A stretch of 40,905 bases of DNA from Deltaproteobacteria bacterium (GTDB taxonomy: Bacteria; JAEEML01), in NCBI GenBank assembly GCA_016283195.1, contig JAEEML010000040.1:1-40905 (forward strand). Direction: 5' to 3'. Position numbers and translations under genes: made by a program. Positions 1-29,392 of this stretch are shown piece after piece (within the stretch, counting starts at the first letter, position 1; each line of letters opens with the position of its first letter). The notes beneath the pieces were generated by a model that ran no database searches, was not told the origin of the DNA, and saw only the letters and a list, made by a program, of their open reading frames with translations.

Positions 1-1675
1 CCTGATCCACATCGAGCGCAATTATGCTGGGCGGGGCCAGCTTTTCCTCTATTTGGCTATAAATAATAAGCGCCAAAAGTAGGCTAAAAGCGCCGGCAAA
101 AAGCCACTTATTGGCTCTATTGGCTCTTAGGTGTAGCCCCAAAATGGCCGAGAGATAATAGAGAATAGCGCCTAAAAAAGTAAAATGCGGGTTAGGTAGT
201 GGCGGCAAATTAAGGCTATTTATAAATATGGCAATTTGGTCAATAATATAAGCAAGATACCCAGAGATGAGCGCTGCCATATCGGCAGCCCACGGCCAAA
301 ACGGGCTGATAAAGGCGCCCACTGAACCTGTGGCTACCAGTAGAGCTGCCGGCGGGATGGTAACAAGGCTACTAAAGAGGCCGGCCCAGGAGCTTAGGCC
401 AAAAAAGTAATTGCTTAAGGGCATGGTAGCCAGAGTTGCCACGATAGAGACACAAAATAGCCCCCAAAAATAGCGAAATATTGGCCAAAAGCGCCCCTTT
501 TTGAGCGGGCACCAGCTTAAAAAGGGGCGAGCCAAAATGAGCCCACCGGCGGCGGCGAAAGAGAGCAAAAAGCCGGGGCTAAAGAGCGCCACCGGCTCAT
601 AGAGCAAAATAATGAGAGCGGCTGTGGCCAGGTTATTGAGGGCGGCCGAGGAGCGCCCAAGAGCTAGGCCAGAAAAGACCAGGCCGGCCATGATGCCGGC
701 GCGTACTGTGGACCAGGAGGCGCCGGTAAAGAGCACATAAAAGACTAAAAAGAGCAGCACGCCTATAGCCGCCGCCTTTTGCGCCGGTAAGCCGCGCGGC
801 AAGCGCCAAAGCGAGAAGAGCATTTTAAAAAGAAAATAAATAAGCCCCAAAGTAAAGCCCACATGGAGGCCGGAAACAGCCAAAAGATGGGAAGTTCCGG
901 CCTGGGCATGGCGCGCACCGATAGCGCTGTCACGCTCGTCTTTTAGCCCTAAAATCATGGCTTTACTTATAATGGCGCTGGCTTTATCCGGCGCCATAGC
1001 GCTTAAGCGGGCACCGTAATTATGGCGAAAGTTTTCCAGTTTTTGGCGCAACCTAGCCATAAATGAGCTTTTACTATCTAGCGGCGCGGCCGTTATAGCG
1101 CGCAAAGAATAATGAATGCCCTCCATCTTTTCCGCCCGGGAAAAATCATGTTGCCCAAAATTGCGGCTTTGGTGAATTTCCCTTAAAGTGCCCCAAAGTG
1201 TTACCCGGCTATTACTTAGCCAAGTGCCGGGCGGCAAAGAGAGGCGCACTTTAAAAGGCTCTGGTTTGAGTTTCATATTTTTGAGGCAGAGTGAATCGGA
1301 AACTGTGGCTGTAGTTTGGTAATAAATCTCACCAGTTAAGCTTATGTGCTTTTGCGGCACTTCGTTGATGGTAATAAGCCACTCTACCGGCTTTTCCCGG
1401 CACTCCCTGGGCAGAGTGATTTGGGTTTCTGCTTTTTGGCGCAAAAGCTTGCCGCCAAGCAGCCCGAGCGCCCCAAAAGAAAGAGCAACAGTCAGCGGCA
1501 ACAAAATGGCTATCTTGTTATTTTTAGGCCACTTTTCATGGGCTAACGAGGTGGCGGCCAGGGCCAGTAAAGGCGGAATAAGAAGCCAATAGAGCGGTAT
1601 AGTAAACTCCGCAAGAGAAGCCAGATAAAGACTAAAAGCGAGGGCCAGAGCCGGTATTAAAAAAGGACAAGGCAT
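1..1675 (-). CDS. comEC: DNA internalization competence protein ComEC/Rec2 (3' end runs off window)
   Basis: Not in ORF track; translated by hand from ATG 1675 (MPCPFLIPALA). Same frame gives GTSHLLAVSGLHVG (~857-898) and IALDVDQG at the window edge (start of metallo-beta-lactamase domain). Confidence 0.9.
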   Translation of the reverse strand, partial: MPCPFLIPALALAFSLYLASLAEFTIPLYWLLIPPLLALAATSLAHEKWPKNNKIAILLPLTVALSFGALGLLGGKLLRQKAETQITLPRECREKPVEWLITINEVPQKHISLTGEIYYQTTATVSDSLCLKNMKLKPEPFKVRLSLPPGTWLSNSRVTLWGTLREIHQSRNFGQHDFSRAEKMEGIHYSLRAITAAPLDSKSSFMARLRQKLENFRHNYGARLSAMAPDKASAIISKAMILGLKDERDSAIGARHAQAGTSHLLAVSGLHVGFTLGLIYFLFKMLFSLWRLPRGLPAQKAAAIGVLLFLVFYVLFTGASWSTVRAGIMAGLVFSGLALGRSSAALNNLATAALIILLYEPVALFSPGFLLSFAAAGGLILARPFLSWCPLKKGRFWPIFRYFWGLFCVSIVATLATMPLSNYFFGLSSWAGLFSSLVTIPPAALLVATGSVGAFISPFWPWAADMAALISGYLAYIIDQIAIFINSLNLPPLPNPHFTFLGAILYYLSAILGLHLRANRANKWLFAGAFSLLLALIIYSQIEEKLAPPSIIALDVDQ

Positions 1676-5798: not shown

Positions 5799-6704
5799 CT
5801 AGCCCTTAACCGCCCCGGCGGTGAGGCCGGAAACGAGATTTCTTTGCAAAGCAAAGAAGAGAGCCATAACGGGAATGGAGACGATGAGGGCGCCGGCGGC
5901 AAAGTGGCCCCAATCGACAGAATATTCGCCGATGAATTGCTGCAGCATCACTGGCAAGGTGTAAGAAGTTTCGTTGCTCATAAAGGTAGCGGCCAAAATA
6001 AATTCATTCCAGCCGGTCATAAAAGAGAAGAGGAAGGTGACGGCCAGAGCCGGCTTGCAAAGGGGCATGACAATTTGCCAAAAGACCCGAAAATGGCTGG
6101 CTCCGTCGATAATGGCCGCCTCTTCCAGCTCTTTGGGAATGGTATCGAAATAGCCCTTTAAATTCCACACACAGAAGGGAATGGAAGTAGTGGAATATAC
6201 AAGAATAAGTCCCAGCATTTGGTCCAGAAGACCCAATTTTTCAATAATGATATAAAGAGGGATCATCATCATGGTGCCGGGGAACATCTGGGTGACCAAA
6301 AAGGCCATGAGCCCGGCTCTTTGCCCGGGGAATTTAAAGCGGCTAAAGGCATAAGCGGCGGTGCAAGCCAAAAGAATACCCATGAGGGCGGTGGCAATGG
6401 AGACCACCAGGCTGTTAAAGAGCTGGCGGCCAAAGAGCCAAACCTCTTTATCTTCGGTGATTTTTGTCTCTTCGCCTTTATCGTTGGTAATGACCTTTTC
6501 CACCTTGATATTTTTGCTGCTGGTGAGCACCTCTTTAAAATTTTTGAGCGAAAACTCGGTGGGGAAGGGATTTACCGAGAGGTTAAAATTATTGCTGGTA
6601 CCCAGGGCAATTTGCACCACTTTTAACACCGGGAAGATGGTGATAAAGGTAAAGCAAATCAGGAAGATGTGCACAAAGATGAATTTAACTTTTTGCTTAT
6701 TCAT
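5799..6704 (-). CDS. Sugar ABC transporter permease (MalG-like)
   Basis: EAA loop IPKELEEAAIIDGAS; multiple TM segments; C-terminal GLTAGAVKG. Confidence 0.93.
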   Translation of the reverse strand: MNKQKVKFIFVHIFLICFTFITIFPVLKVVQIALGTSNNFNLSVNPFPTEFSLKNFKEVLTSSKNIKVEKVITNDKGEETKITEDKEVWLFGRQLFNSLVVSIATALMGILLACTAAYAFSRFKFPGQRAGLMAFLVTQMFPGTMMMIPLYIIIEKLGLLDQMLGLILVYSTTSIPFCVWNLKGYFDTIPKELEEAAIIDGASHFRVFWQIVMPLCKPALAVTFLFSFMTGWNEFILAATFMSNETSYTLPVMLQQFIGEYSVDWGHFAAGALIVSIPVMALFFALQRNLVSGLTAGAVKG

Positions 6705-6707
6705 GGC

Positions 6708-8966
6708 TTATCTCCCCGACCCTTCCGTGCCTTTGGTCACCCGGTTGGTAACTTGTGAATATAAGAACAAAATAAAGAAGATGATGATGGAATAGGCGGC
6801 GGCGTAACCGTAGCGGTTGCCGCGCTCGAAGGCCCAGCGGTAGGCCTCGGAAATGAGGATATCGGTGGCTCCGCCCGGCGCGCCCTTGGAGACCAAATAG
6901 ATGACGTTGAACTGATTAAAGGTCCAAACGGTGCTCAAAATGATGGAGGGGAAGAGAGCCGGCTTTAAAAGCGGCAGAGTAATATGGCGGAATTGTTGCC
7001 ATTTACTGGCGCCGTCCACCTTGGCCGCTTCGTAAAGGTCTGAAGGGATAGATTGCAAAGCGCCCAGAGAGACCACCATCATAAAGGGGAAGCCCAGCCA
7101 GCAGTTGGTGGCCAGGTTGGTGAGAAAAGCGGTGCCGGTATTGGCCCACCAGTCGATATTCAGGCCAAAGATGTGGTTGATGACGCCGTAGCGCTGGTCA
7201 AACATACCGCGCCAGATGATGGCGGTGATGTAGCTGGGGACAGCCCAAGGAATGATGAGCAGCACGCGGTAGATACCTTTAAATTTAAGCAGCGGCTCCT
7301 TCAAAATGAGGGCGAGAGCGAGGCCTACAGCCACGGTAATCACCAGGTTGGAGACGGTCCAGGCGATGGTGATTAAGAGTTTATAATAAAAGTTGTAATT
7401 ATCGGGGAAGGGATATTCGCCGGAAAAGAGAATATCAATAAAGTTTTTAATGCCTATGTAGTAGTAATCATTTTGGAAATAGCGGAAAAAGGCTAAAGAG
7501 ATGGCATAGACAAAGGGAATAAAGACCACCAGCCCCATGGAGATGACTGTTGGCGCTATGTAGCCGTAAGCAAAGATATTTTCCCTAATATCTTTGAAGA
7601 ATTTTTTGGTTTTTTCTTTCCTGACAATGGCATAGGCGATGAGGGCGATTAAAAGGAGGCCAAACAGTATGGCGATATGGCAGATAAAGGTGCCGATGCC
7701 GTTATCGCCTTTATCTTTGAGCGCCTGGCCCTCATCCTGGGCGATGATGTAATGTTCCACGGTGCGCTGGCATTTATTGAGCGCTGCTTCCGGAGTGCTT
7801 TTGTCGTTAATCACCTCAGCGAGAGCCAGGTCATAAGGGGCCCAAATAAGCCCCATAATGGGGATATTGGGCATGGGTACGGCATTTTCCATCTGGTGCA
7901 TAAAGGTGCTGACAATTTGGTCGTTTTTTACTTCCGGGCGCTCGTAAATGGCTTTATTAGCTACAGTTTGGTGGCCCTTTTCCTGGCGAATCTGGGCGGC
8001 CCAGTCGCTGGTTAAGGCGTTCATAACTTTGACGGCGGCCAGCGGTTTTTGCGTGGTTTTGGAGAGCAAAAAGGCCTCAGCGCCTAAGAGGGGCTGGGCT
8101 CTTTTGCCGCTCTCGCTGATAACCGGTAAGAGGGCCAGGCCGTAATCGACATTTTTATTAATTTCTGACAAAAACCAGGGGCCGGAGATGACCATGGCCG
8201 CCTTGCCTTCATTAAAAAGCGAAGTGATTTGGTAACCTTGGATGCCCTTGGGCACCACCGGATCGGCCGGATCGATGAGCGTTTTCATAAAGCGCAGGGC
8301 CTCGGCGTGGGCTTTGGTATTTAAAACGGCCTTATGGCCCTCAAAAAACTCCCCGCCAAAGCCGAAAATCCAGGGGGCGTGGGAATAGAACTTGCCCACT
8401 TCATAAACCAGGCCAAAGCGGTTTTCTGCGTTTTTAGTAAATTTTTTGGCCAAAGTAATCATCTCGGCCGAAGTTTCCGGCGGATTATCAATGAGCTTTT
8501 TGTTATAAAAGAGAGCCAGACTCTTAAAGGTGGTGGGGAGGCCGTAAAGCTCATTTTCAAAAGTTAAAGCTTCCATGGTTTTAGGGAAGAAGCGGCTATC
8601 CAGATCGGTTACGCCGTCCAGCTGTTTTAAATAAGAATCAATGGGCTGAATGCGCTTATTCACTGCCCAATCGCCCACGCGGTCGTGGGCAAAGATAAAA
8701 ATATCCGGCCCGGTGCCGTGGGGAATAGCCGAATCGAGCTTGCTGGCAAAAGCTTCATTGGGAATGGAGAGCACTTCCACGGCTATCTCTTTTTGGCTCT
8801 TATTATAGGCTTCGACCGTGGCTTCAAGTGCCGCTTTTTCAGCATCGCGGTATGAATGCCAAAGCCTGATAATTACTTGGGAATTTTGTGATTCATCGGC
8901 CTGAGCCGAGGGCCAGGCAAAGAGCGTAACGAGCAGAGCCACAGCGAATCTTAAGAAGCGCGTCAT
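6708..8966 (-). CDS. Fused sugar-binding protein (MalE-like) and ABC permease (MalF-like)
   Basis: Start moved to ATG 8966 (SD GGGAG; signal peptide ending AQA). SBP motifs GPDIFIFAHD, GKAAMVISGPW; C-terminal EAA loop DLYEAAKVDGAS. Confidence 0.9.
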   Translation of the reverse strand: MTRFLRFAVALLVTLFAWPSAQADESQNSQVIIRLWHSYRDAEKAALEATVEAYNKSQKEIAVEVLSIPNEAFASKLDSAIPHGTGPDIFIFAHDRVGDWAVNKRIQPIDSYLKQLDGVTDLDSRFFPKTMEALTFENELYGLPTTFKSLALFYNKKLIDNPPETSAEMITLAKKFTKNAENRFGLVYEVGKFYSHAPWIFGFGGEFFEGHKAVLNTKAHAEALRFMKTLIDPADPVVPKGIQGYQITSLFNEGKAAMVISGPWFLSEINKNVDYGLALLPVISESGKRAQPLLGAEAFLLSKTTQKPLAAVKVMNALTSDWAAQIRQEKGHQTVANKAIYERPEVKNDQIVSTFMHQMENAVPMPNIPIMGLIWAPYDLALAEVINDKSTPEAALNKCQRTVEHYIIAQDEGQALKDKGDNGIGTFICHIAILFGLLLIALIAYAIVRKEKTKKFFKDIRENIFAYGYIAPTVISMGLVVFIPFVYAISLAFFRYFQNDYYYIGIKNFIDILFSGEYPFPDNYNFYYKLLITIAWTVSNLVITVAVGLALALILKEPLLKFKGIYRVLLIIPWAVPSYITAIIWRGMFDQRYGVINHIFGLNIDWWANTGTAFLTNLATNCWLGFPFMMVVSLGALQSIPSDLYEAAKVDGASKWQQFRHITLPLLKPALFPSIILSTVWTFNQFNVIYLVSKGAPGGATDILISEAYRWAFERGNRYGYAAAYSIIIFFILFLYSQVTNRVTKGTEGSGR

Positions 8967-22267: not shown

Positions 22268-23035
22268 ATGCATAAGTTAATCAAGGGAGCAGTGATTTCA
22301 TTATTTACTCTTGGTTTGGCTGTGGCCTCTTGTCATAACGAAGAGCCTAAGCAGGAAGAGTCGCCGAAAAACAATAGCGCTGCTAACAAAAGCGACGACA
22401 AGGGTGCTAGTACCAATAAAGACGGCAGTAGCGATGCTGCCAGCGATGCTAATAACGGTGCCGATGCCATAAGTGATGATAACGGTAAGCAGAATGTTTC
22501 CGGCACTATGACCGATGCGGCCGGTAATAGCTATAAAACAGTGGTGATAAATGGGCTTACCTGGATGGCCGAAAATATAAAATACGAAGATGAAAGCGCC
22601 GGTATTACCTGTGACTGGAGTGGGTATAATTACCATGAAGACGCTGATTTTAAAGAAGAATACGGCTGCTATTACAAGCTGGAATCGGCCAAGAAAGTTT
22701 GCCCGACAGGTTGGCATTTGCCAACTGAAGCCGAGTTTCAAAATCTTTTGAGTAAAGCTGATGCCTATGATCTGATGGCTAAAAAACCTGCCTGGAGCAA
22801 AAGCAGTCAAGATGGCCGTGATACTTACGGCTTTGCCGCGCTTCCTGCCGGCAGCGGGCGCTGCCAAGTCGGCGAGTGTGCGCTTTTTTGGAGCTCTTCG
22901 GAAGATAGCGGTGATCAAGTTTATTTACGGATAAGAGCCACCGCATATGCAGATGATGACATTATAACCGAAATAGTGGCTGCTCTTGATGTTGATTTGG
23001 CTACTTATATGTCAGTGCGCTGTATAAAGGATTAG
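22268..23035 (+). CDS. FISUMP domain lipoprotein
   Basis: Lipobox VASC; WMAENI, CPTGWHLPT, YGFAALPAG, FWSS, SVRCIKD; SD AAGGAG. Confidence 0.88.
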   Translation: MHKLIKGAVISLFTLGLAVASCHNEEPKQEESPKNNSAANKSDDKGASTNKDGSSDAASDANNGADAISDDNGKQNVSGTMTDAAGNSYKTVVINGLTWMAENIKYEDESAGITCDWSGYNYHEDADFKEEYGCYYKLESAKKVCPTGWHLPTEAEFQNLLSKADAYDLMAKKPAWSKSSQDGRDTYGFAALPAGSGRCQVGECALFWSSSEDSGDQVYLRIRATAYADDDIITEIVAALDVDLATYMSVRCIKD

Positions 23036-23208: not shown

Positions 23209-23286
23209 CGGGGCGTAGCGCAGCCTGGCTAGCGCACTTGACTGGGGGTCAAGGGGCCGCTGGTTCAAATCCAGTCGCCCCGACCA
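23209..23286 (+). tRNA. tRNA-Pro(GGG)
   Basis: Acceptor stem CGGGGCG/CGCCCCG; anticodon arm CTTGA-CTGGGGG-TCAAG; GGTTCAAATCC; encoded CCA. Confidence 0.97.
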
Positions 23287-24240: not shown

Positions 24241-24866
24241 CTAGTCCTTAACGCGGCGCACAGAGAAAGCGCTACTATCATTGCTGACATAGTTCACGAG
24301 CGCAATATCATTGCCTAAGGATAGGTAGTAGGCGTTGTTGCTATTGTCCTCCGTAGCCGACCAGAAGAAGGCGTTAATACCCCAAAAGTGATAACTGCCA
24401 TAGTTGTAGACACCGGCTGGCAAAGCGCCCAAGGCGGTACTGTTGGTAACCTGAGCTTGGTATTTATTTTTCCACACCGGATTTTTAGCTGCTAAAGCTA
24501 AAAAAGCCGGATTGGGCAGTGACTTATTTTCATTACTGCCAGCAGCACTTAAAAGACTTTGAAAATCGACCTTTTGCGGTAAATGCCAACCTTTGGGGCA
24601 TACCTTCATAGCATCTTCCCAAATATAGAGGCAGCCGTATTTTTTTACAAAATCAGGATCTTCTTTTGTATTGGCATAGCAGCTTAAAGAGCTGCCGTCA
24701 TTACCGACGCTAGCCGCCATATTTTCGGCCATCCAGGTTGAACCGCCTATAGTTACCGCCTTAAAATCGGGAATAACCTTGGCTTCACCCTCTTTCCCGG
24801 TTGGCTTATTACAGGCGGCACAGGCCAAAATTGTTAAAATAAAAGAAATTTTTAAAGTCTCTCCAT
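24241..24866 (-). pseudogene. FISUMP domain lipoprotein gene, frameshifted just after the start codon
   Basis: SD AGGAG plus ATG 24866 is out of frame with the signal peptide TLKISFILTILACAAC (span 626 nt); terminal SVRC is SVRR. Confidence 0.7.
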
Positions 24867-24967: not shown

Positions 24968-25013
24968 CAAAAAAAGATAACCAACCGGCAGGTCGCATCT
25001 ATTCCTGCCGGTT
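24968..25013 (-). terminator. Hairpin/terminator at the left islet boundary
   Basis: Stem AACCGGCAGG (24983-24992)/CCTGCCGGTT (25004-25013); T run follows on the minus strand. Confidence 0.55.
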
Positions 25014-25035
25014 ATAGTCACTGATGTTTGGTTAA

Positions 25036-25494
25036 CTACTTTTTAATTGATTTCCATGCTTCTATCGCCTTGATTATTTGTGGATCTTTTTCTGGAACAT
25101 AGCTGGGATTCTTCTCCAAATTTATTTCCCCGATATTTGATAGGAGAGGTATTGCAATACTGTCAAAAATATCGCTAGCTGTCCCACCATATTTTTGCGT
25201 GTCAACGCGATAATATAAATACGAGATAAAGGGATAAGGATCACGAAGCGGTTGTTCTGTGCCTCCATAGTAAAAAAATAAATTGGCAAAATTGAGAACG
25301 TCGTTTTCGGTTAAACAGCATTGTTGCAAATAATCGAACCAATAGGGAAAGATAGTATTCCAGCCATAATCCCTGATCAACTTCTGTGCCTTGTCACTGT
25401 GCTCGTAGCTGTTATCTGCATCAAAAGTTGGATCATCAAATTTACAATTGAAAAGGTAGCTTGTTGTTTTTATAATTTCTTCTGTATCGTTCAT
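25036..25494 (-). CDS. Putative immunity/antitoxin protein
   Basis: Acidic, aromatic-rich protein. Likely start ATG 25494, 2 nt after the upstream stop, with SD GGAG (ORF track start is 25509). Function inferred from position. Confidence 0.65.
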   Translation of the reverse strand: MNDTEEIIKTTSYLFNCKFDDPTFDADNSYEHSDKAQKLIRDYGWNTIFPYWFDYLQQCCLTENDVLNFANLFFYYGGTEQPLRDPYPFISYLYYRVDTQKYGGTASDIFDSIAIPLLSNIGEINLEKNPSYVPEKDPQIIKAIEAWKSIKK

Positions 25495-25496
25495 AT

Positions 25497-26003
25497 CTAT
25501 TGTCTCCATTTTGAGTCCTTATGGAACAGTTTAGGATTGCGATTACACATTTCCTCTAATATTTTATCCGTTTTTTCCATCGACTTTATATCTGGCCGGT
25601 AATGACCACTATTATTGTCGACAGAATAAATTTTTCCGTTTCTGAAGGTTATCATTCCGGCATTTTGTACTTCAGGATCTTTACCACCGATTAGTGTCGG
25701 ATGAGGTGATCTTTTCAAAGGATTAATTGGATTACTTCGCTTGCCAAAGATAATATCTCCGCTTTGAGACATCACGTAGGCATATTGACCGTTTGCCTTG
25801 CTGCCTTCAATGTAAAATGAATCATGTTGCACGGCATTTTCCAGCATTGTGGCTGTAGGATTTTGGAAATAGCCGGTAGTTGGATTGTAAATATCAGGGT
25901 CTTTTTTGTCATTATTCAACTCCGCATCAACAACGTGATAAGTATCGGCATAAGGTTGAGAACCTCCTGCACCGGAGTATGAGCTGGTACTTTTAGTGCC
26001 CAT
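25497..26003 (-). CDS. Putative toxin with H..AG..NxSGHYxP motif
   Basis: HPTLIGG..VQNAGMITFRNGKIYSVDNNSGHYRP; Ser/Gly-rich N-terminus; 1 nt from the DUF4417 stop. Confidence 0.6.
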   Translation of the reverse strand: MGTKSTSSYSGAGGSQPYADTYHVVDAELNNDKKDPDIYNPTTGYFQNPTATMLENAVQHDSFYIEGSKANGQYAYVMSQSGDIIFGKRSNPINPLKRSPHPTLIGGKDPEVQNAGMITFRNGKIYSVDNNSGHYRPDIKSMEKTDKILEEMCNRNPKLFHKDSKWRQ

Positions 26004-26004
26004 A

Positions 26005-26682
26005 TCAGATCACCCCTCCATGCATTCGCTTTGTCCAGTTTGGGTAGTTAATAAATTTGGCATAATCTAAATATTGGCCAAAAACCTTGTCAGGCATTGC
26101 TCCATAGACAAGAACAACAAGCGGTTCAAGAGTGTCCATCATGGCTTCAAGCCCAGCTTCAAAATAATATTTGTCTTCTCTGCTGGAAATACAACCGTAG
26201 GTTCCAATAGCCAGAATACTGTGTTTTTCAGCTCCGAGAAAGGCTACCTTTTGTGGAAAGTATTTTGTTGTATATGTGTACTCGTTGCCCCACCTAATTT
26301 GTGGTATCACATACTGACCTCGACGCTGATAGTATCCACCAATAGCTCTGTTGCGATAAATATTGGTTAATTGCACACTTAGTGGAGCATCCCTGTACAA
26401 TGAGCAATCAGGACTGATCATAGCTGCAAATCGCCCGAAATCATCAATATATGCCTCAGGTGTTCTTAGTACTTCACTAAAATTTACATCCATTTCGCAG
26501 AAGCCAATAGCTTCATTGGTGCTCGGAGCTCTATTGCGCATAGAAAATGGAGTAATTCCTGGCGGAATAGTAATTCTAGCTGGTGCTTTTATGATCGGAA
26601 TTCCCAAGGGAAGATCAAATTTTGCTCCAGCAACCAATTTAGGATTGCATCCATCATCAATTATTGCTTTATTTTTGCTCAT
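26005..26682 (-). CDS. DUF4417 domain protein
   Basis: SPDCSLYRDAP..Q..NIYRNR..G.YYQ..G..VIP.IRW; GL..M...LEP..VLVYG; SD AGGAGG before ATG 26682. Confidence 0.85.
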   Translation of the reverse strand: MSKNKAIIDDGCNPKLVAGAKFDLPLGIPIIKAPARITIPPGITPFSMRNRAPSTNEAIGFCEMDVNFSEVLRTPEAYIDDFGRFAAMISPDCSLYRDAPLSVQLTNIYRNRAIGGYYQRRGQYVIPQIRWGNEYTYTTKYFPQKVAFLGAEKHSILAIGTYGCISSREDKYYFEAGLEAMMDTLEPLVVLVYGAMPDKVFGQYLDYAKFINYPNWTKRMHGGVI

Positions 26683-26763
26683 ATTATACGCCCTCCTATA
26701 AGCGCAGTTTTTAAAAGGCAAAAGCATTTGTAGTTGTCCTTTGTCTTAGGATATACTTGCATT

Positions 26764-26846: not shown

Positions 26847-27548
26847 TTATTTAGAAGGATCAAATTCTTTTTCCAAAATGTTCAGCTCCCTTAATCGATA
26901 GAGCATTGGGCTATAGTTTACTCCGAACAGATATCCGAGTCCTTTGATGTCGTCTGCCATCCTTTGCTCAAATGGAATCGGGTAGCCACTATAATACAGA
27001 AGATTTCGCGCTCCATATTCAACAGCTTCTCGTGGCATGAGAAAAGCTGCTGCCGCATAATTAGCCTGGTGTTCGAGCCAATAAAGAGCATTATTCTTGT
27101 TGGTTTGCTCCCTGTTGTAATCTGTAAAAGATCGTGACATATGCCCGTCGCATTCGAAAGCAGACTTGTGTTTGGCAAAATGAAAGCACTCATGCATTAC
27201 CGTAAAGTTTTCAATAAAATGGTCGCGTTTTTTAGAACTTTCGCTTAAGCTCTGGTCTATTATTATCGTGCCCCCGTAGAATAACTTAAGTTTTGGCATC
27301 ATATCAATAGTCCAAGACCGATTGGCGATTTCAGGCCAGACGTAGAACGGTCCTGTATTGAAAATCGTTGCTCCAAGAAATGAGCGGGTTGGTGATAGAA
27401 ATTCAAAAGCTATTCTGGCACCAAGTAGATCAACTATGTCATACACATCGACCCTTGATGGCTTTTTTAACCTGCCAGCATCGTAACGTTGATTTAGCTT
27501 ATTAGCTAATTCCTCAAGCTGTGCATGTGAATACGGGTAGTAAATCAA
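26847..27548 (-). CDS. ImmA/IrrE family metallo-endopeptidase
   Basis: FTVMHECFH (HExxH), EHQANYAAAAFLMP; TTG start with SD AAGGAG overlapping the xre stop. Confidence 0.9.
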   Translation of the reverse strand: MIYYPYSHAQLEELANKLNQRYDAGRLKKPSRVDVYDIVDLLGARIAFEFLSPTRSFLGATIFNTGPFYVWPEIANRSWTIDMMPKLKLFYGGTIIIDQSLSESSKKRDHFIENFTVMHECFHFAKHKSAFECDGHMSRSFTDYNREQTNKNNALYWLEHQANYAAAAFLMPREAVEYGARNLLYYSGYPIPFEQRMADDIKGLGYLFGVNYSPMLYRLRELNILEKEFDPSK

Positions 27549-27559
27549 ATACGTTCTCC

Positions 27560-27937
27560 TTAGCTTTTCTTACTTTCTTCCAACATTCTTATGATTCTTT
27601 CCCATTCTTTTTCACCCGCACCGGAATCTCGTGCAATACGAAGTGCAACGCGAGATTTATTCTGAGCCATAATGTAATCGGCAATATCTGGTGAAACGGA
27701 ATTTTTTTTATTCCCTGCTGCCAGGTCAAAAAGGTAATCAGTTTCTTCCCGACTAAGGTTTAAGGCTGTGGCTATCAAATATATCTTTTCCTTTTCCGGC
27801 GGGTAGCGATGATTATTTTCTATATCGCTCATATACGCTGGTGCTATGCCAAGTATTTCGGCAAGCTTACGCAGGTTAATCTTGGCAGCCAATCGTTTTT
27901 CCCTGACATAGTTGCCAAATGTTTTCTCTTCTTCCAT
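27560..27937 (-). CDS. XRE-family HTH transcriptional regulator
   Basis: FGNYVREKR..LRKLAEILGIAPAYMSDIENN; start ATG 27937 with SD GGGGAG. Confidence 0.92.
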   Translation of the reverse strand: MEEEKTFGNYVREKRLAAKINLRKLAEILGIAPAYMSDIENNHRYPPEKEKIYLIATALNLSREETDYLFDLAAGNKKNSVSPDIADYIMAQNKSRVALRIARDSGAGEKEWERIIRMLEESKKS

Positions 27938-27971
27938 GTTGCTCTCCCCTTTAAAGTTAGTTGTATGCACA

Positions 27972-28045: not shown

Positions 28046-28194
28046 ACTTTTTATTTTTACTTGCTTGTGCAATAAAAAAAAGGCTGATTCTGCCTTTGAA
28101 TCGCATATTCGTTTTGCAAGTGGTTGCTAGACATGGTCTTTGTTACGATTTAACTATATCATCAGCATCTTTTATGCGAAAGGATAGTAATGAT

Positions 28195-29139
28195 ATGGTA
28201 GCTAAGGAGATTAGCCAGTATATCTCACTGATTCTGCGTCATAAACCGGAAATAATAGGCATTACTCTTGATGAACACGGCTGGGCTAATGTAACAGAGC
28301 TGATTGGCGGAGTAAATAAGACATATCCGCTTAATATGGAGGCTCTGGAAGAGATTGTTAGCACTGATGAAAAAAAGCGTTACTCCTTTAATGATGACAA
28401 AACGCTTATTCGGGCTAATCAGGGGCACTCTATCCAGGTTGATGTAGAACTTCAAGAAGTAGTACCGCCTAAATATCTGTATCACGGAACTGGGAAAAAA
28501 TACGTAAATTCCATTGATAAACATGGACTTTTACCGAAGTCTAGGCTATATGTACATCTTTGCGAAGACATAGATACAGCTATTAAAGTTGGTTCCCGTC
28601 ATGGTCAGCCAATAGTATACCGGGTTTTAGCTGGGCTGATGTTTAATGCTGGTATGAGTTTTTATAAATCTGCCAATGGTGTTTGGTTAGCCAAAAGAGT
28701 TCCGACAGAGTATTTTAGAAAGGAAGAATGTATGTCAACCGGAACCGCTGAGATTGTACGAGAATTAAAAACTGCCTTTAAGTCTGGTTTAGATGCTGAA
28801 GAAGTAGCAGCAACAGTTTTATCCCGCTACTCATGGAATGAGTTACAGCCGGCTCTTATAGCCATATTGCTGGATGATTCTCTCCCAAGGAATTATTATG
28901 AAATGACAGCCGGGATATTCTGGGAAGCAGTTCTTGATGGCCAGCAAATACAAAAAGAAATAGTGGTGGGCTTATTGTATTACCGCCTGGGCGACAAAAA
29001 AGCGCCATATGATAATAACCTTATTTGGAGCATTGCGACAGAATTGTATAGCCTTGATTATGCCGATTCGGAGTTTAATCCGTTTTACGATGCCGGGATT
29101 TTAAAAGTGCTTGGTGACTACGGAATAACTTTTTCGTGA
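28195..29139 (+). CDS. kptA: RNA 2'-phosphotransferase (Tpt1/KptA) fused to a 135-aa immunity-like domain
   Basis: SLILRH.PE, KKRY, IRANQGHS, LYHGT, R.YVHL, NGVWL..VP; reading frame continues past the usual end; in-frame ATG 28732 with AAGGAAG upstream. Confidence 0.9.
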   Translation: MVAKEISQYISLILRHKPEIIGITLDEHGWANVTELIGGVNKTYPLNMEALEEIVSTDEKKRYSFNDDKTLIRANQGHSIQVDVELQEVVPPKYLYHGTGKKYVNSIDKHGLLPKSRLYVHLCEDIDTAIKVGSRHGQPIVYRVLAGLMFNAGMSFYKSANGVWLAKRVPTEYFRKEECMSTGTAEIVRELKTAFKSGLDAEEVAATVLSRYSWNELQPALIAILLDDSLPRNYYEMTAGIFWEAVLDGQQIQKEIVVGLLYYRLGDKKAPYDNNLIWSIATELYSLDYADSEFNPFYDAGILKVLGDYGITFS

Positions 29140-29167: not shown

Positions 29168-29392
29168 TTATTCCTGCCGGTTATAATCTCTCACAATGCC
29201 GATAATAATGAGTGCCGCGCAAATAGTGGCAAAGATAAAAGCTCCCACCTGGCACCAGGGCGCCAGGCCGTAATGGCTATCGAGACGCCCGCCCAGATAG
29301 ACAAAAAGGCCGTAAATAAGCCCCAGTTCCAGGCCGATGGAGCTGTAGCGTAGAGCCAGATTCCACATCTTTTTGTCATCTTTATCAGTCAT
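29168..29392 (-). CDS. AtpZ/AtpI family small membrane protein
   Basis: YSSIGLELG..G..LD..YG..PW pattern with two TM helices; not followed by other atp genes. Confidence 0.75.
   Translation of the reverse strand: MTDKDDKKMWNLALRYSSIGLELGLIYGLFVYLGGRLDSHYGLAPWCQVGAFIFATICAALIIIGIVRDYNRQE

Follow-up and report, generated by a model that had tools for sequence, protein, structure and literature searches.

In the Tre1/Tri1 pair, immunity reportedly arises through occlusion of the toxin's active site plus enzymatic reversal, and Tri1 is said to consist of one ARH domain plus an extension, not of two fused domains. The antitoxin DarG both reverses a nucleic-acid lesion and complexes with its toxin, and, according to PMC9967889, catalytically dead DarG still counteracts DarT; PMC11833690 shows enzymes that confer immunity to RNA-modifying toxins. 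The function of bacterial Tpt1/KptA enzymes is an acknowledged open question, with bacteria lacking the fungal-type tRNA ligase that makes their substrate, and according to PMC6573784 the role of Tpt1 in taxa without such a ligase "remains obscure". Here we describe an islet within a 40,905-nt stretch of DNA (the window: contig JAEEML010000040.1 of assembly GCA_016283195.1, Deltaproteobacteria bacterium) that encodes a Tpt1/KptA enzyme joined in frame to a homologue of the islet's own putative immunity protein, Imm, whose gene lies directly after that of a putative toxin, Tox168. We propose, at roughly even odds (a probability of about 0.5), that this fusion, Tpt1-CTD, is a dual protector of the DarG/Tri1 kind, one that would bind the toxin and perhaps undo its damage enzymatically.

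The Tpt1-CTD gene runs on the plus strand from an ATG at 28195 to a TGA at 29137-29139 and encodes 314 amino acids (aa); the listed open reading frame (ORF) begins earlier, at a TTG at 28096, but homologues start at the 28195 Met. Its Tpt1/KptA part (aa 1-179, 28195..28731) is complete: aa 5-167 match PF01885 (2.5e-41, 142.1 bits against a cut-off of 26), aa 4-177 score 237.9 bits against the NCBIfam equivalog NF002014, just below the cut-off of 239, and the domain matches phrog_5470 (2.7e-74) and aligns end to end with the solved Tpt1 chains 7kw8 (E 1.2e-46) and 6e3a. The catalytic Arg-His-Arg-Arg tetrad, as defined in PMC10622864, is found at R15, H16, R73 and R117 and is invariant in 8/8 aligned fusions. 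Judged by motif, the N-terminal region is thus a complete NAD+-dependent 2'-phosphotransferase that is predicted to be catalytically intact, in agreement with an earlier, sequence-only reading of this DNA, which had noted that the motifs look intact. It is also the sole PF01885 match in its genome. The Tpt1 domain ends at about residue 177, and the protein continues without a stop codon into a 135-aa extension, the C-terminal domain (CTD; 28732..29139, plus strand, in frame with Tpt1). The proposal that the CTD may also be made alone, from an ATG at 28732, found no support: that position holds a Met in only one of the eight aligned fusions. A Met two columns upstream occurs in three of the eight, and the linker is variable.

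The homology of the CTD to Imm (25036..25509, minus strand) had been put forward from an alignment made by eye. As a pairwise match this alignment is weak: BLASTP gives a non-significant E of 7.6, and the Smith-Waterman score of 49 (shuffles: mean 30.0, standard deviation 5.2; z 3.7) is reached by 7 of 2000 shuffles and, with other gap settings, by 2, 4 and 2 of 1000. At the profile level the match is real. When 43 CTD-family sequences were aligned with 20 Imm-family sequences in hhalign, the two profiles matched over 112 columns (Prob 96.7, P 3.4e-10, score 62.9), and the 11 controls all scored 20.1 or less (8.1 for a reversed alignment, 9.1-20.1 for ten column shuffles). A hidden Markov model (HMM) of the CTD family, searched against all six frames of the 3.2-Mb source genome, found two matches only, the CTD itself (3.7e-37) and the Imm ORF (25051-25437, minus strand; 8.1e-7), and it matched none of 60 unrelated control genomes, which are related to the source only at the "same domain" level. 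The same HMM picks up the Imm genes of two other genomes (G061, 7.8e-8; G062, 3.8e-4), and the Imm-position proteins of loci L033 and L034 match both the CTD and the Imm profile. Maximum-likelihood analysis of 69 domains gives a tree that splits into two clades, Imm (14 rows) and CTD (55 rows), with 100% support in the SH-like approximate likelihood ratio test (SH-aLRT). The pairwise similarity is marginal, but the profile match is highly significant and its controls are clean; we therefore regard the homology, as predicted from these profiles, as firm, with CTD and Imm as two deep branches of one superfamily. The hhalign comparison, the genome-wide search and the controls all agree that Tpt1 is fused to a homologue of the islet's putative immunity protein.

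To place this fusion among its relatives, we scanned metagenomes with a 7-sequence CTD alignment, which returned 19 loci besides the window. Six of these (L007-L011 and L013) carry an uninterrupted Tpt1-CTD ORF, with 66-77% identity to the window protein in Tpt1 and 49-56% in the CTD. Three more (L014, L019 and L017) each show an arrangement of their own, described below, five hold free-standing genes on short contigs, and five are partial and unclassified. A second Tpt1-CTD protein, P0041, came from the databases (PF01885, 2.1e-45), bringing the full-length fusions to eight in about five lineages; P0027, P0043 and P0079 are N-truncated pieces that start in the Tpt1 C terminus. The fused CTDs form at least three subgroups of a single 33-row clade (95% support), in which they are interleaved with free-standing CTDs and with P0002, a CTD fused to a helix-turn-helix (HTH) domain. 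The sequence-only reading had warned that a one-off loss of a stop codon or an assembly error could mimic a fusion; the recurrence of the full-length protein on six separate contigs and in P0041, seven cases besides the window, speaks for a genuine architecture.

Fusion is one of three arrangements in which Tpt1 is tied to the toxin module. In the second, Imm is followed by Tpt1: in genome G251 (L033), Tox168 (6029-6535), Imm (6542-7000) and a standalone Tpt1 (7080-7619) lie on one strand. In the third, a CTD-type gene precedes Tpt1, as in L019, where it lies 40 nt upstream of a standalone Tpt1. In G201, Tpt1 lies 8.9 kb from a module that consists of DUF4417, Tox168 and two Imm genes. Overall, Tpt1 is found no more than 10 kb away in 4/8 Tox168 loci; three of the four that remain (L014, L024 and L035) are truncated at contig ends. 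Across 301 genomes of the same bacterial order, PF01885 is found in 32, Tox168 in 4 and CTD-HMM matches in 4. Other Tpt1 fusions exist in this order as well: an ASCH-Tpt1 protein of 304 aa (L044 2964-3875, genome G074) and a 350-aa protein in which Tpt1 is followed by an unassigned C-terminal domain of ~170 aa (L043 2500-3549, genome G308). For the ORF upstream of Tpt1 in G078, a SUKH-like identity had been guessed; Pfam gave it no support.

The Imm/CTD proteins appear to form a family of their own. Imm (152-157 aa, all-alpha) has no match in Pfam, NCBIfam, PADLOC or PHROG and 23 relatives at 47-100% identity. The CTD has 72 representative relatives in an exhaustive phmmer search of 1.84 billion representatives, mostly free-standing proteins of 120-165 aa, and none of the 43 CTD-family members matches a meaningful Pfam family. 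The AlphaFold2 (AF2) model of the CTD is a seven-helix bundle with a mean predicted local distance difference test (pLDDT) score of 95.6; compared with known structures, it gives weak matches to MA3, MIF4G and HEAT/ARM-like repeats (E>=0.2, TM ~0.4), and no family is assigned. In the ESM Atlas, the closest clusters bear the automatic name "Immunity protein 30 domain-containing" (scores 0.92 and 0.91). This name was followed up and rejected: 0/43 family members match PF15565 (Imm30) even at E<=10, and a search of the source genome with the PF15565 HMM is empty at the same threshold.

The genomic company of these proteins points to immunity. The gene right after Tox168 encodes a member of the Imm/CTD superfamily in 8/8 Tox168 loci. 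In seven (the window, L007, L024, L025, L033, L034 and L035) it belongs to the Imm clade; in L014 it belongs to the CTD clade and is 47% identical to the window CTD, which itself lies 2.2 kb from Tox168, on the opposite strand and in the same repeat-bounded islet. Elsewhere, the CTD is fused to a SUKH-4 immunity domain (P0078; PF14435, 1.7e-8) or to an XRE HTH in the classic antitoxin layout (P0002, which nests among the Tpt1-fused CTDs in the tree), and in L017 a CTD-type gene shares an immunity island with two kinds of immunity gene, YezG-like and Tdi1, and with a ParE/Phd pair. Two Imm genes stand in tandem in G201 (DUF4417, Tox168, Imm, Imm). The small protein had been called a putative immunity protein, and the role gains support here, as its gene stands where an immunity gene would, behind a domain found elsewhere as an orphan CdiA-CT. 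We conclude that Imm/CTD is a previously undescribed, all-helical superfamily of putative immunity and antitoxin proteins, absent from Pfam. Directly upstream of the DUF4417-Tox168-CTD module of L014 lie Thoeris-type genes (180-1518, minus strand: ThsB TIR, 4e-8; ThsA Macro, 5.6e-30), which is a defence-island context.

Tox168 itself (25497..26003, minus strand, 168 aa) also belongs to a family without a name. Among 206 candidates, 200 relatives at E<=1e-3 are all unnamed, ~170 aa long and 54-74% identical; the family comprises at least 200 clusters. R88, H100 (in a P-H-P-T-L-I-G-G-K stretch) and H133 (in S-G-H) are invariant. The AF2 model is confident (pLDDT 91.5), and no match was found in Pfam, in PDB sequences or among PDB folds. 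The clue to its function comes from Cronobacter plasmid NZ_CP012265.1, where an orphan ORF in a hemagglutinin-repeat (cdiA) locus is 40.8% identical to the Tox168 core (E 1e-19). This ORF follows, with an overlap, one whose annotation reads "VENN motif pre-toxin domain-containing protein", which is the classic place of a contact-dependent-inhibition (CDI) toxin tip. The small ORF downstream of it is not of the Imm/CTD family. The polymorphic-toxin position thus holds for a homologue, and Tox168 of the window is free-standing; we predict that Tox168 is a toxin-type domain of a family absent from Pfam, and treat it as a putative toxin. One relative, P0121 (252 aa), lacks the usual Gly/Ser-rich start and instead has ~85 additional, helical-looking aa at its N terminus, which may be a delivery or partner-binding module.

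Complex modelling, which had been suggested together with the fusion, pairs the CTD with this putative toxin. The CTD-Tox168 model reached ipSAE values of 0.93, 0.93 and 0.94, and the best control 0.00; the runs share at least 98% of their contacts, and partner pLDDT is at least 94. In calibration the ipSAE mark was reached by 58/80 solved complexes and 2/110 mismatched pairs, a rough guide here given the custom alignments. The modelled interface takes in Tox168 residues 87-90, 97-100 and 131-133, including the invariant R88, H100 and H133, and CTD residues 96-97, 99-101 and 109-112, including the conserved N96, W99, S100, I101 and Y110. The model supports the idea that the window CTD binds Tox168 over its conserved Arg/His residues.

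These observations suggest how Tpt1-CTD might work. As a paralogue-type member of the Imm/CTD superfamily, the CTD would bind Tox168-type toxins over the conserved Arg/His pocket, as modelled, and through it Tpt1-CTD would block the toxin stoichiometrically. The Tpt1 domain would then enzymatically remove the nucleic-acid lesion left by any toxin that escapes. We infer that RNA is the target of Tox168 and that Tpt1 undoes the resulting lesion, which would most plausibly be a 2'-phosphate on RNA or a terminal 2'/3'-phosphate. According to PMC6573784, terminal 2'/3' phosphates are removed by some Tpt1 enzymes in addition to internal 2'-phosphates, and in PMC9503650 KptA is proposed to tidy the ends left by metal-independent RNases. 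A more far-reaching version of this scheme is tentative and on the doubtful side: Tox168 would represent a new class of nucleic-acid toxin that leaves a 2'- or terminal 2'/3'-phosphate, Tpt1-CTD would be the first 2'-phosphotransferase antitoxin, DarG-like in its logic and built on the ADP-ribosyltransferase (ART) fold, and the native role of at least part of the bacterial Tpt1/KptA enzymes would be to undo such lesions.

Several points weigh against a dual protector. A cognate Imm is already present in the islet, so a second binder lacks an explanation. Inspection of ORFs and Pfam matches found no RNA ligase, 2H/CPDase or kinase gene among the islet genes, and therefore no evident route to an internal 2'-phosphate. 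Tpt1 is missing from the assemblies of three genomes with the toxin module (G061, G062 and G229), all of them incomplete metagenome-assembled genomes; the 5.3-kb contig that carries the L013 fusion lacks Tox168; and in G078 the CTD-type gene and Tpt1 are on different contigs. Finally, the complex model is a prediction, and close cousins of a true partner pass it too.

The foremost alternative is a CTD that acts only as a binder. It could be a spare or orphan immunity allele directed at non-self Tox168 variants that was joined to a Tpt1 gene next to it, with a Tpt1 chemistry unrelated to the toxin. Tandem immunity genes do exist, as the two Imm genes of G201 show, the tree interleaves standalone, HTH-fused and Tpt1-fused CTDs, and Tpt1 has also been joined to unrelated domains (ASCH in G074, the ~170-aa domain in G308). 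Against this, the link to Tpt1 recurs in three layouts, and the reading frame and the tetrad have been kept while the CTDs have diverged to only 49-56% identity; moreover, Tpt1 is found in just 32 of the 301 genomes, and chance adjacency is therefore unlikely. We think it unlikely that the CTD is a binder and nothing else.

A different use of the same binding event would be sensing. Here Tox168, either the islet's own or an incoming one, would bind the CTD and thereby switch or localise Tpt1, which could act in its own right: Tpt1 enzymes cap 5'-phosphate ends with ADP-ribose, as described in PMC6182162. The CapH/CapP-like pair of HTH and M78 genes in the islet is typical of inducible defence operons, and L014 lies beside Thoeris genes, which would suit such a role. 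The Tpt1 domain, however, is near-canonical by the equivalog model (237.9 bits) and bears no sign of allostery, and the linker is short and variable, so we consider a sensor or tether quite improbable.

The roles could also be reversed, with Tpt1 itself as the toxin and the CTD family as its inhibitor, acting in cis or from just upstream. The discussion of PMC11833690 suggests KptA/Tpt1-like toxins, and the gene order of L019, a small CTD-type gene and then Tpt1, resembles that of an antitoxin and its toxin. The constant neighbour of the family, however, is Tox168 (8/8 loci) rather than Tpt1; the Imm branch is present in genomes without any Tpt1; the complex model places the CTD on Tox168; and the CTD-family HMM finds no match in 29 of the 32 genomes of the sampled order that carry Tpt1. 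This makes a Tpt1 toxin very unlikely. That the fusion is an artefact of a lost stop codon, a chimeric assembly or a chance alignment, as the non-significant BLASTP result and the metagenome-type contig might suggest, has a negligible chance of being right and is refuted by the hhalign and genome-wide HMM results with their controls and by the seven further full-length fusions. A dual protector thus remains the reading that we prefer.

The islet that houses these genes is sharply bounded. Between 25.0 and 29.2 kb the GC content is 0.38-0.41, and in the flanks on either side it is ~0.45-0.52. A 23-nt direct repeat (copies at 25000..25022 and 29169..29191, 21/23 identical) exactly delimits this low-GC stretch and encloses all six genes; by our own arithmetic, chance would yield fewer than 0.001 such pairs in 4.8 kb. 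The left copy marks the islet edge, and the right copy lies within the 3' end of an ATPase_gene1 ORF (29168-29392, minus strand; PF09527). The flanks encode Fibrobacter-type Fib_succ_major proteins and the relatives of the islet genes are in Bacillota-type assemblies; the islet therefore looks like a 4.2-kb horizontally acquired toxin module. A phage origin was considered and found no support: Tox168 has no match in phage records, and both Tox168 and the CTD are absent from the viral contigs searched.

Besides Tpt1-CTD, which is divergent and on the plus strand, the islet holds a minus-strand operon whose first gene encodes an XRE-type HTH regulator (27560..27970; HTH_3, 5.1e-9; PADLOC capH, 5e-9). 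It is followed by the gene for an ImmA/IrrE-type, M78 metallopeptidase-like regulator (26847..27548; PF06114, 1e-4, 22.5 bits against a cut-off of 22; PADLOC capP, 2.4e-7) and then by the DUF4417 (26005..26727; PF14386, 5.4e-41; phrog_8680 and phrog_940), Tox168 and Imm genes, which are packed head to tail. The entire six-gene layout is reproduced in L007, on a 111-kb contig, and the HTH and M78 genes are both kept in L007 and L035. A DUF4417 gene is found directly upstream of Tox168 in 6/8 loci: it adjoins the toxin gene in the window (26005-26727) and recurs in L007 (4502-5173), L014 (1940-2614), L025 (3182-3862), L034 (6551-7234) and L035 (2331-3191). According to bioRxiv 10.1101/2025.10.10.680097, fusions of DUF4417 to ParB-CTPase folds are frequent in phages. 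In two unrelated genomes, a similar three-gene set stands beside DUF4417-Tox168-Imm and divergent to it (L025 90-3044, minus strand; L034 7741-10794, plus strand); its products are ~370-400, ~80 and ~550 aa long, the last ATPase-like at its N terminus by eye, and it may be another defence system.

A scan for promoters and terminators found sites no more numerous than expected by chance. One of them, a terminator-like hairpin with a T-run on the minus strand (28079-28097), lies between the HTH operon and Tpt1-CTD, in a scan that as a whole is at chance level. To the left of the islet are a tRNA-Pro(GGG) gene (23209-23286) and genes for Fib_succ_major-type secreted proteins (22268-23035, by eye; 24241-24828, PF09603). 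The insertion point of the window islet lies at the 3' end of the ATPase_gene1 (AtpI/Z-like) ORF, and in G251 the Tox168-Imm-Tpt1 module adjoins what appears by eye to be the atpC end of an ATP synthase operon (L033 8118-12599); these ATP-synthase-type neighbours may reflect an insertion-site preference or a coincidence. No recombinase is encoded inside the window islet. Serine-recombinase-like fragments, seen by eye rather than by Pfam, flank the module in L007 (8530-9446) and L033 (4919-5152), which fits with mobility.

How, then, does this islet compare with systems that have been described? With respect to the toxin, the likeness is to CdiA-CT/CdiI pairs: the Tox168 core is also found behind VENN as an orphan CT, and a small cognate gene follows the toxin. 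The Imm/CTD family shares with polymorphic toxin-immunity systems its fusion to, or clustering with, SUKH-4, YezG-like and Tdi1 immunity proteins. Unlike a CdiA-CT, the window Tox168 is a free-standing protein of ~170 aa without a delivery domain, placed after DUF4417 and under the HTH and M78 genes, and in this the Tox168 module looks more like an intracellular toxin-antitoxin or defence module than like CDI. The XRE HTH-CTD layout of P0002 is that of a type II antitoxin, whereas the window protein has an enzyme, not a DNA binder, as its N-terminal module. The window protein aligns over the full length of standalone Tpt1/KptA (7kw8 and 6e3a) and has the same intact tetrad; it differs from these enzymes in its additional 135-aa C-terminal toxin-partner domain and in its place in a mobile toxin islet.

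A close parallel is DarG. Tpt1-CTD, like DarG, would be a single protein that couples an enzyme of NAD/ADP-ribose chemistry to a direct complex with the toxin, binding here being modelled and reversal proposed. The enzyme is a macrodomain hydrolase in DarG and a Tpt1 2'-phosphotransferase of the ART fold here; in contrast to DarT/DarG, Tox168 is not recognisable as an ART, and a separate cognate Imm is also present in the islet. With Tri1 the likeness lies in the concept of binding plus reversal, which for Tpt1-CTD we only propose; the enzyme family, the toxin family and the fold are all different. The bind-plus-reverse logic is thus already known; new here are the class of enzyme, the toxin family and the superfamily of putative immunity proteins. 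The sequence-only reading knew of no description of this architecture, and our full-text literature searches turned up neither the Tpt1-immunity fusion nor either of the two small families; supplementary architecture tables, for example those of PMC9503650, may list KptA fusions. The analysis defines two families absent from Pfam, a toxin domain that occurs both free-standing (~170 aa) and as CdiA-CT orphans and an all-helical putative immunity superfamily. The recurrent link of Tpt1, by fusion or neighbourhood, to a toxin-immunity module provides a concrete candidate source of substrate for the bacterial enzyme and a simple genetic test system. If the Tpt1 domain does repair what Tox168 damages, Tpt1-CTD would extend the antitoxin logic of DarG and Tri1, to bind and enzymatically reverse, to a new class of enzyme.

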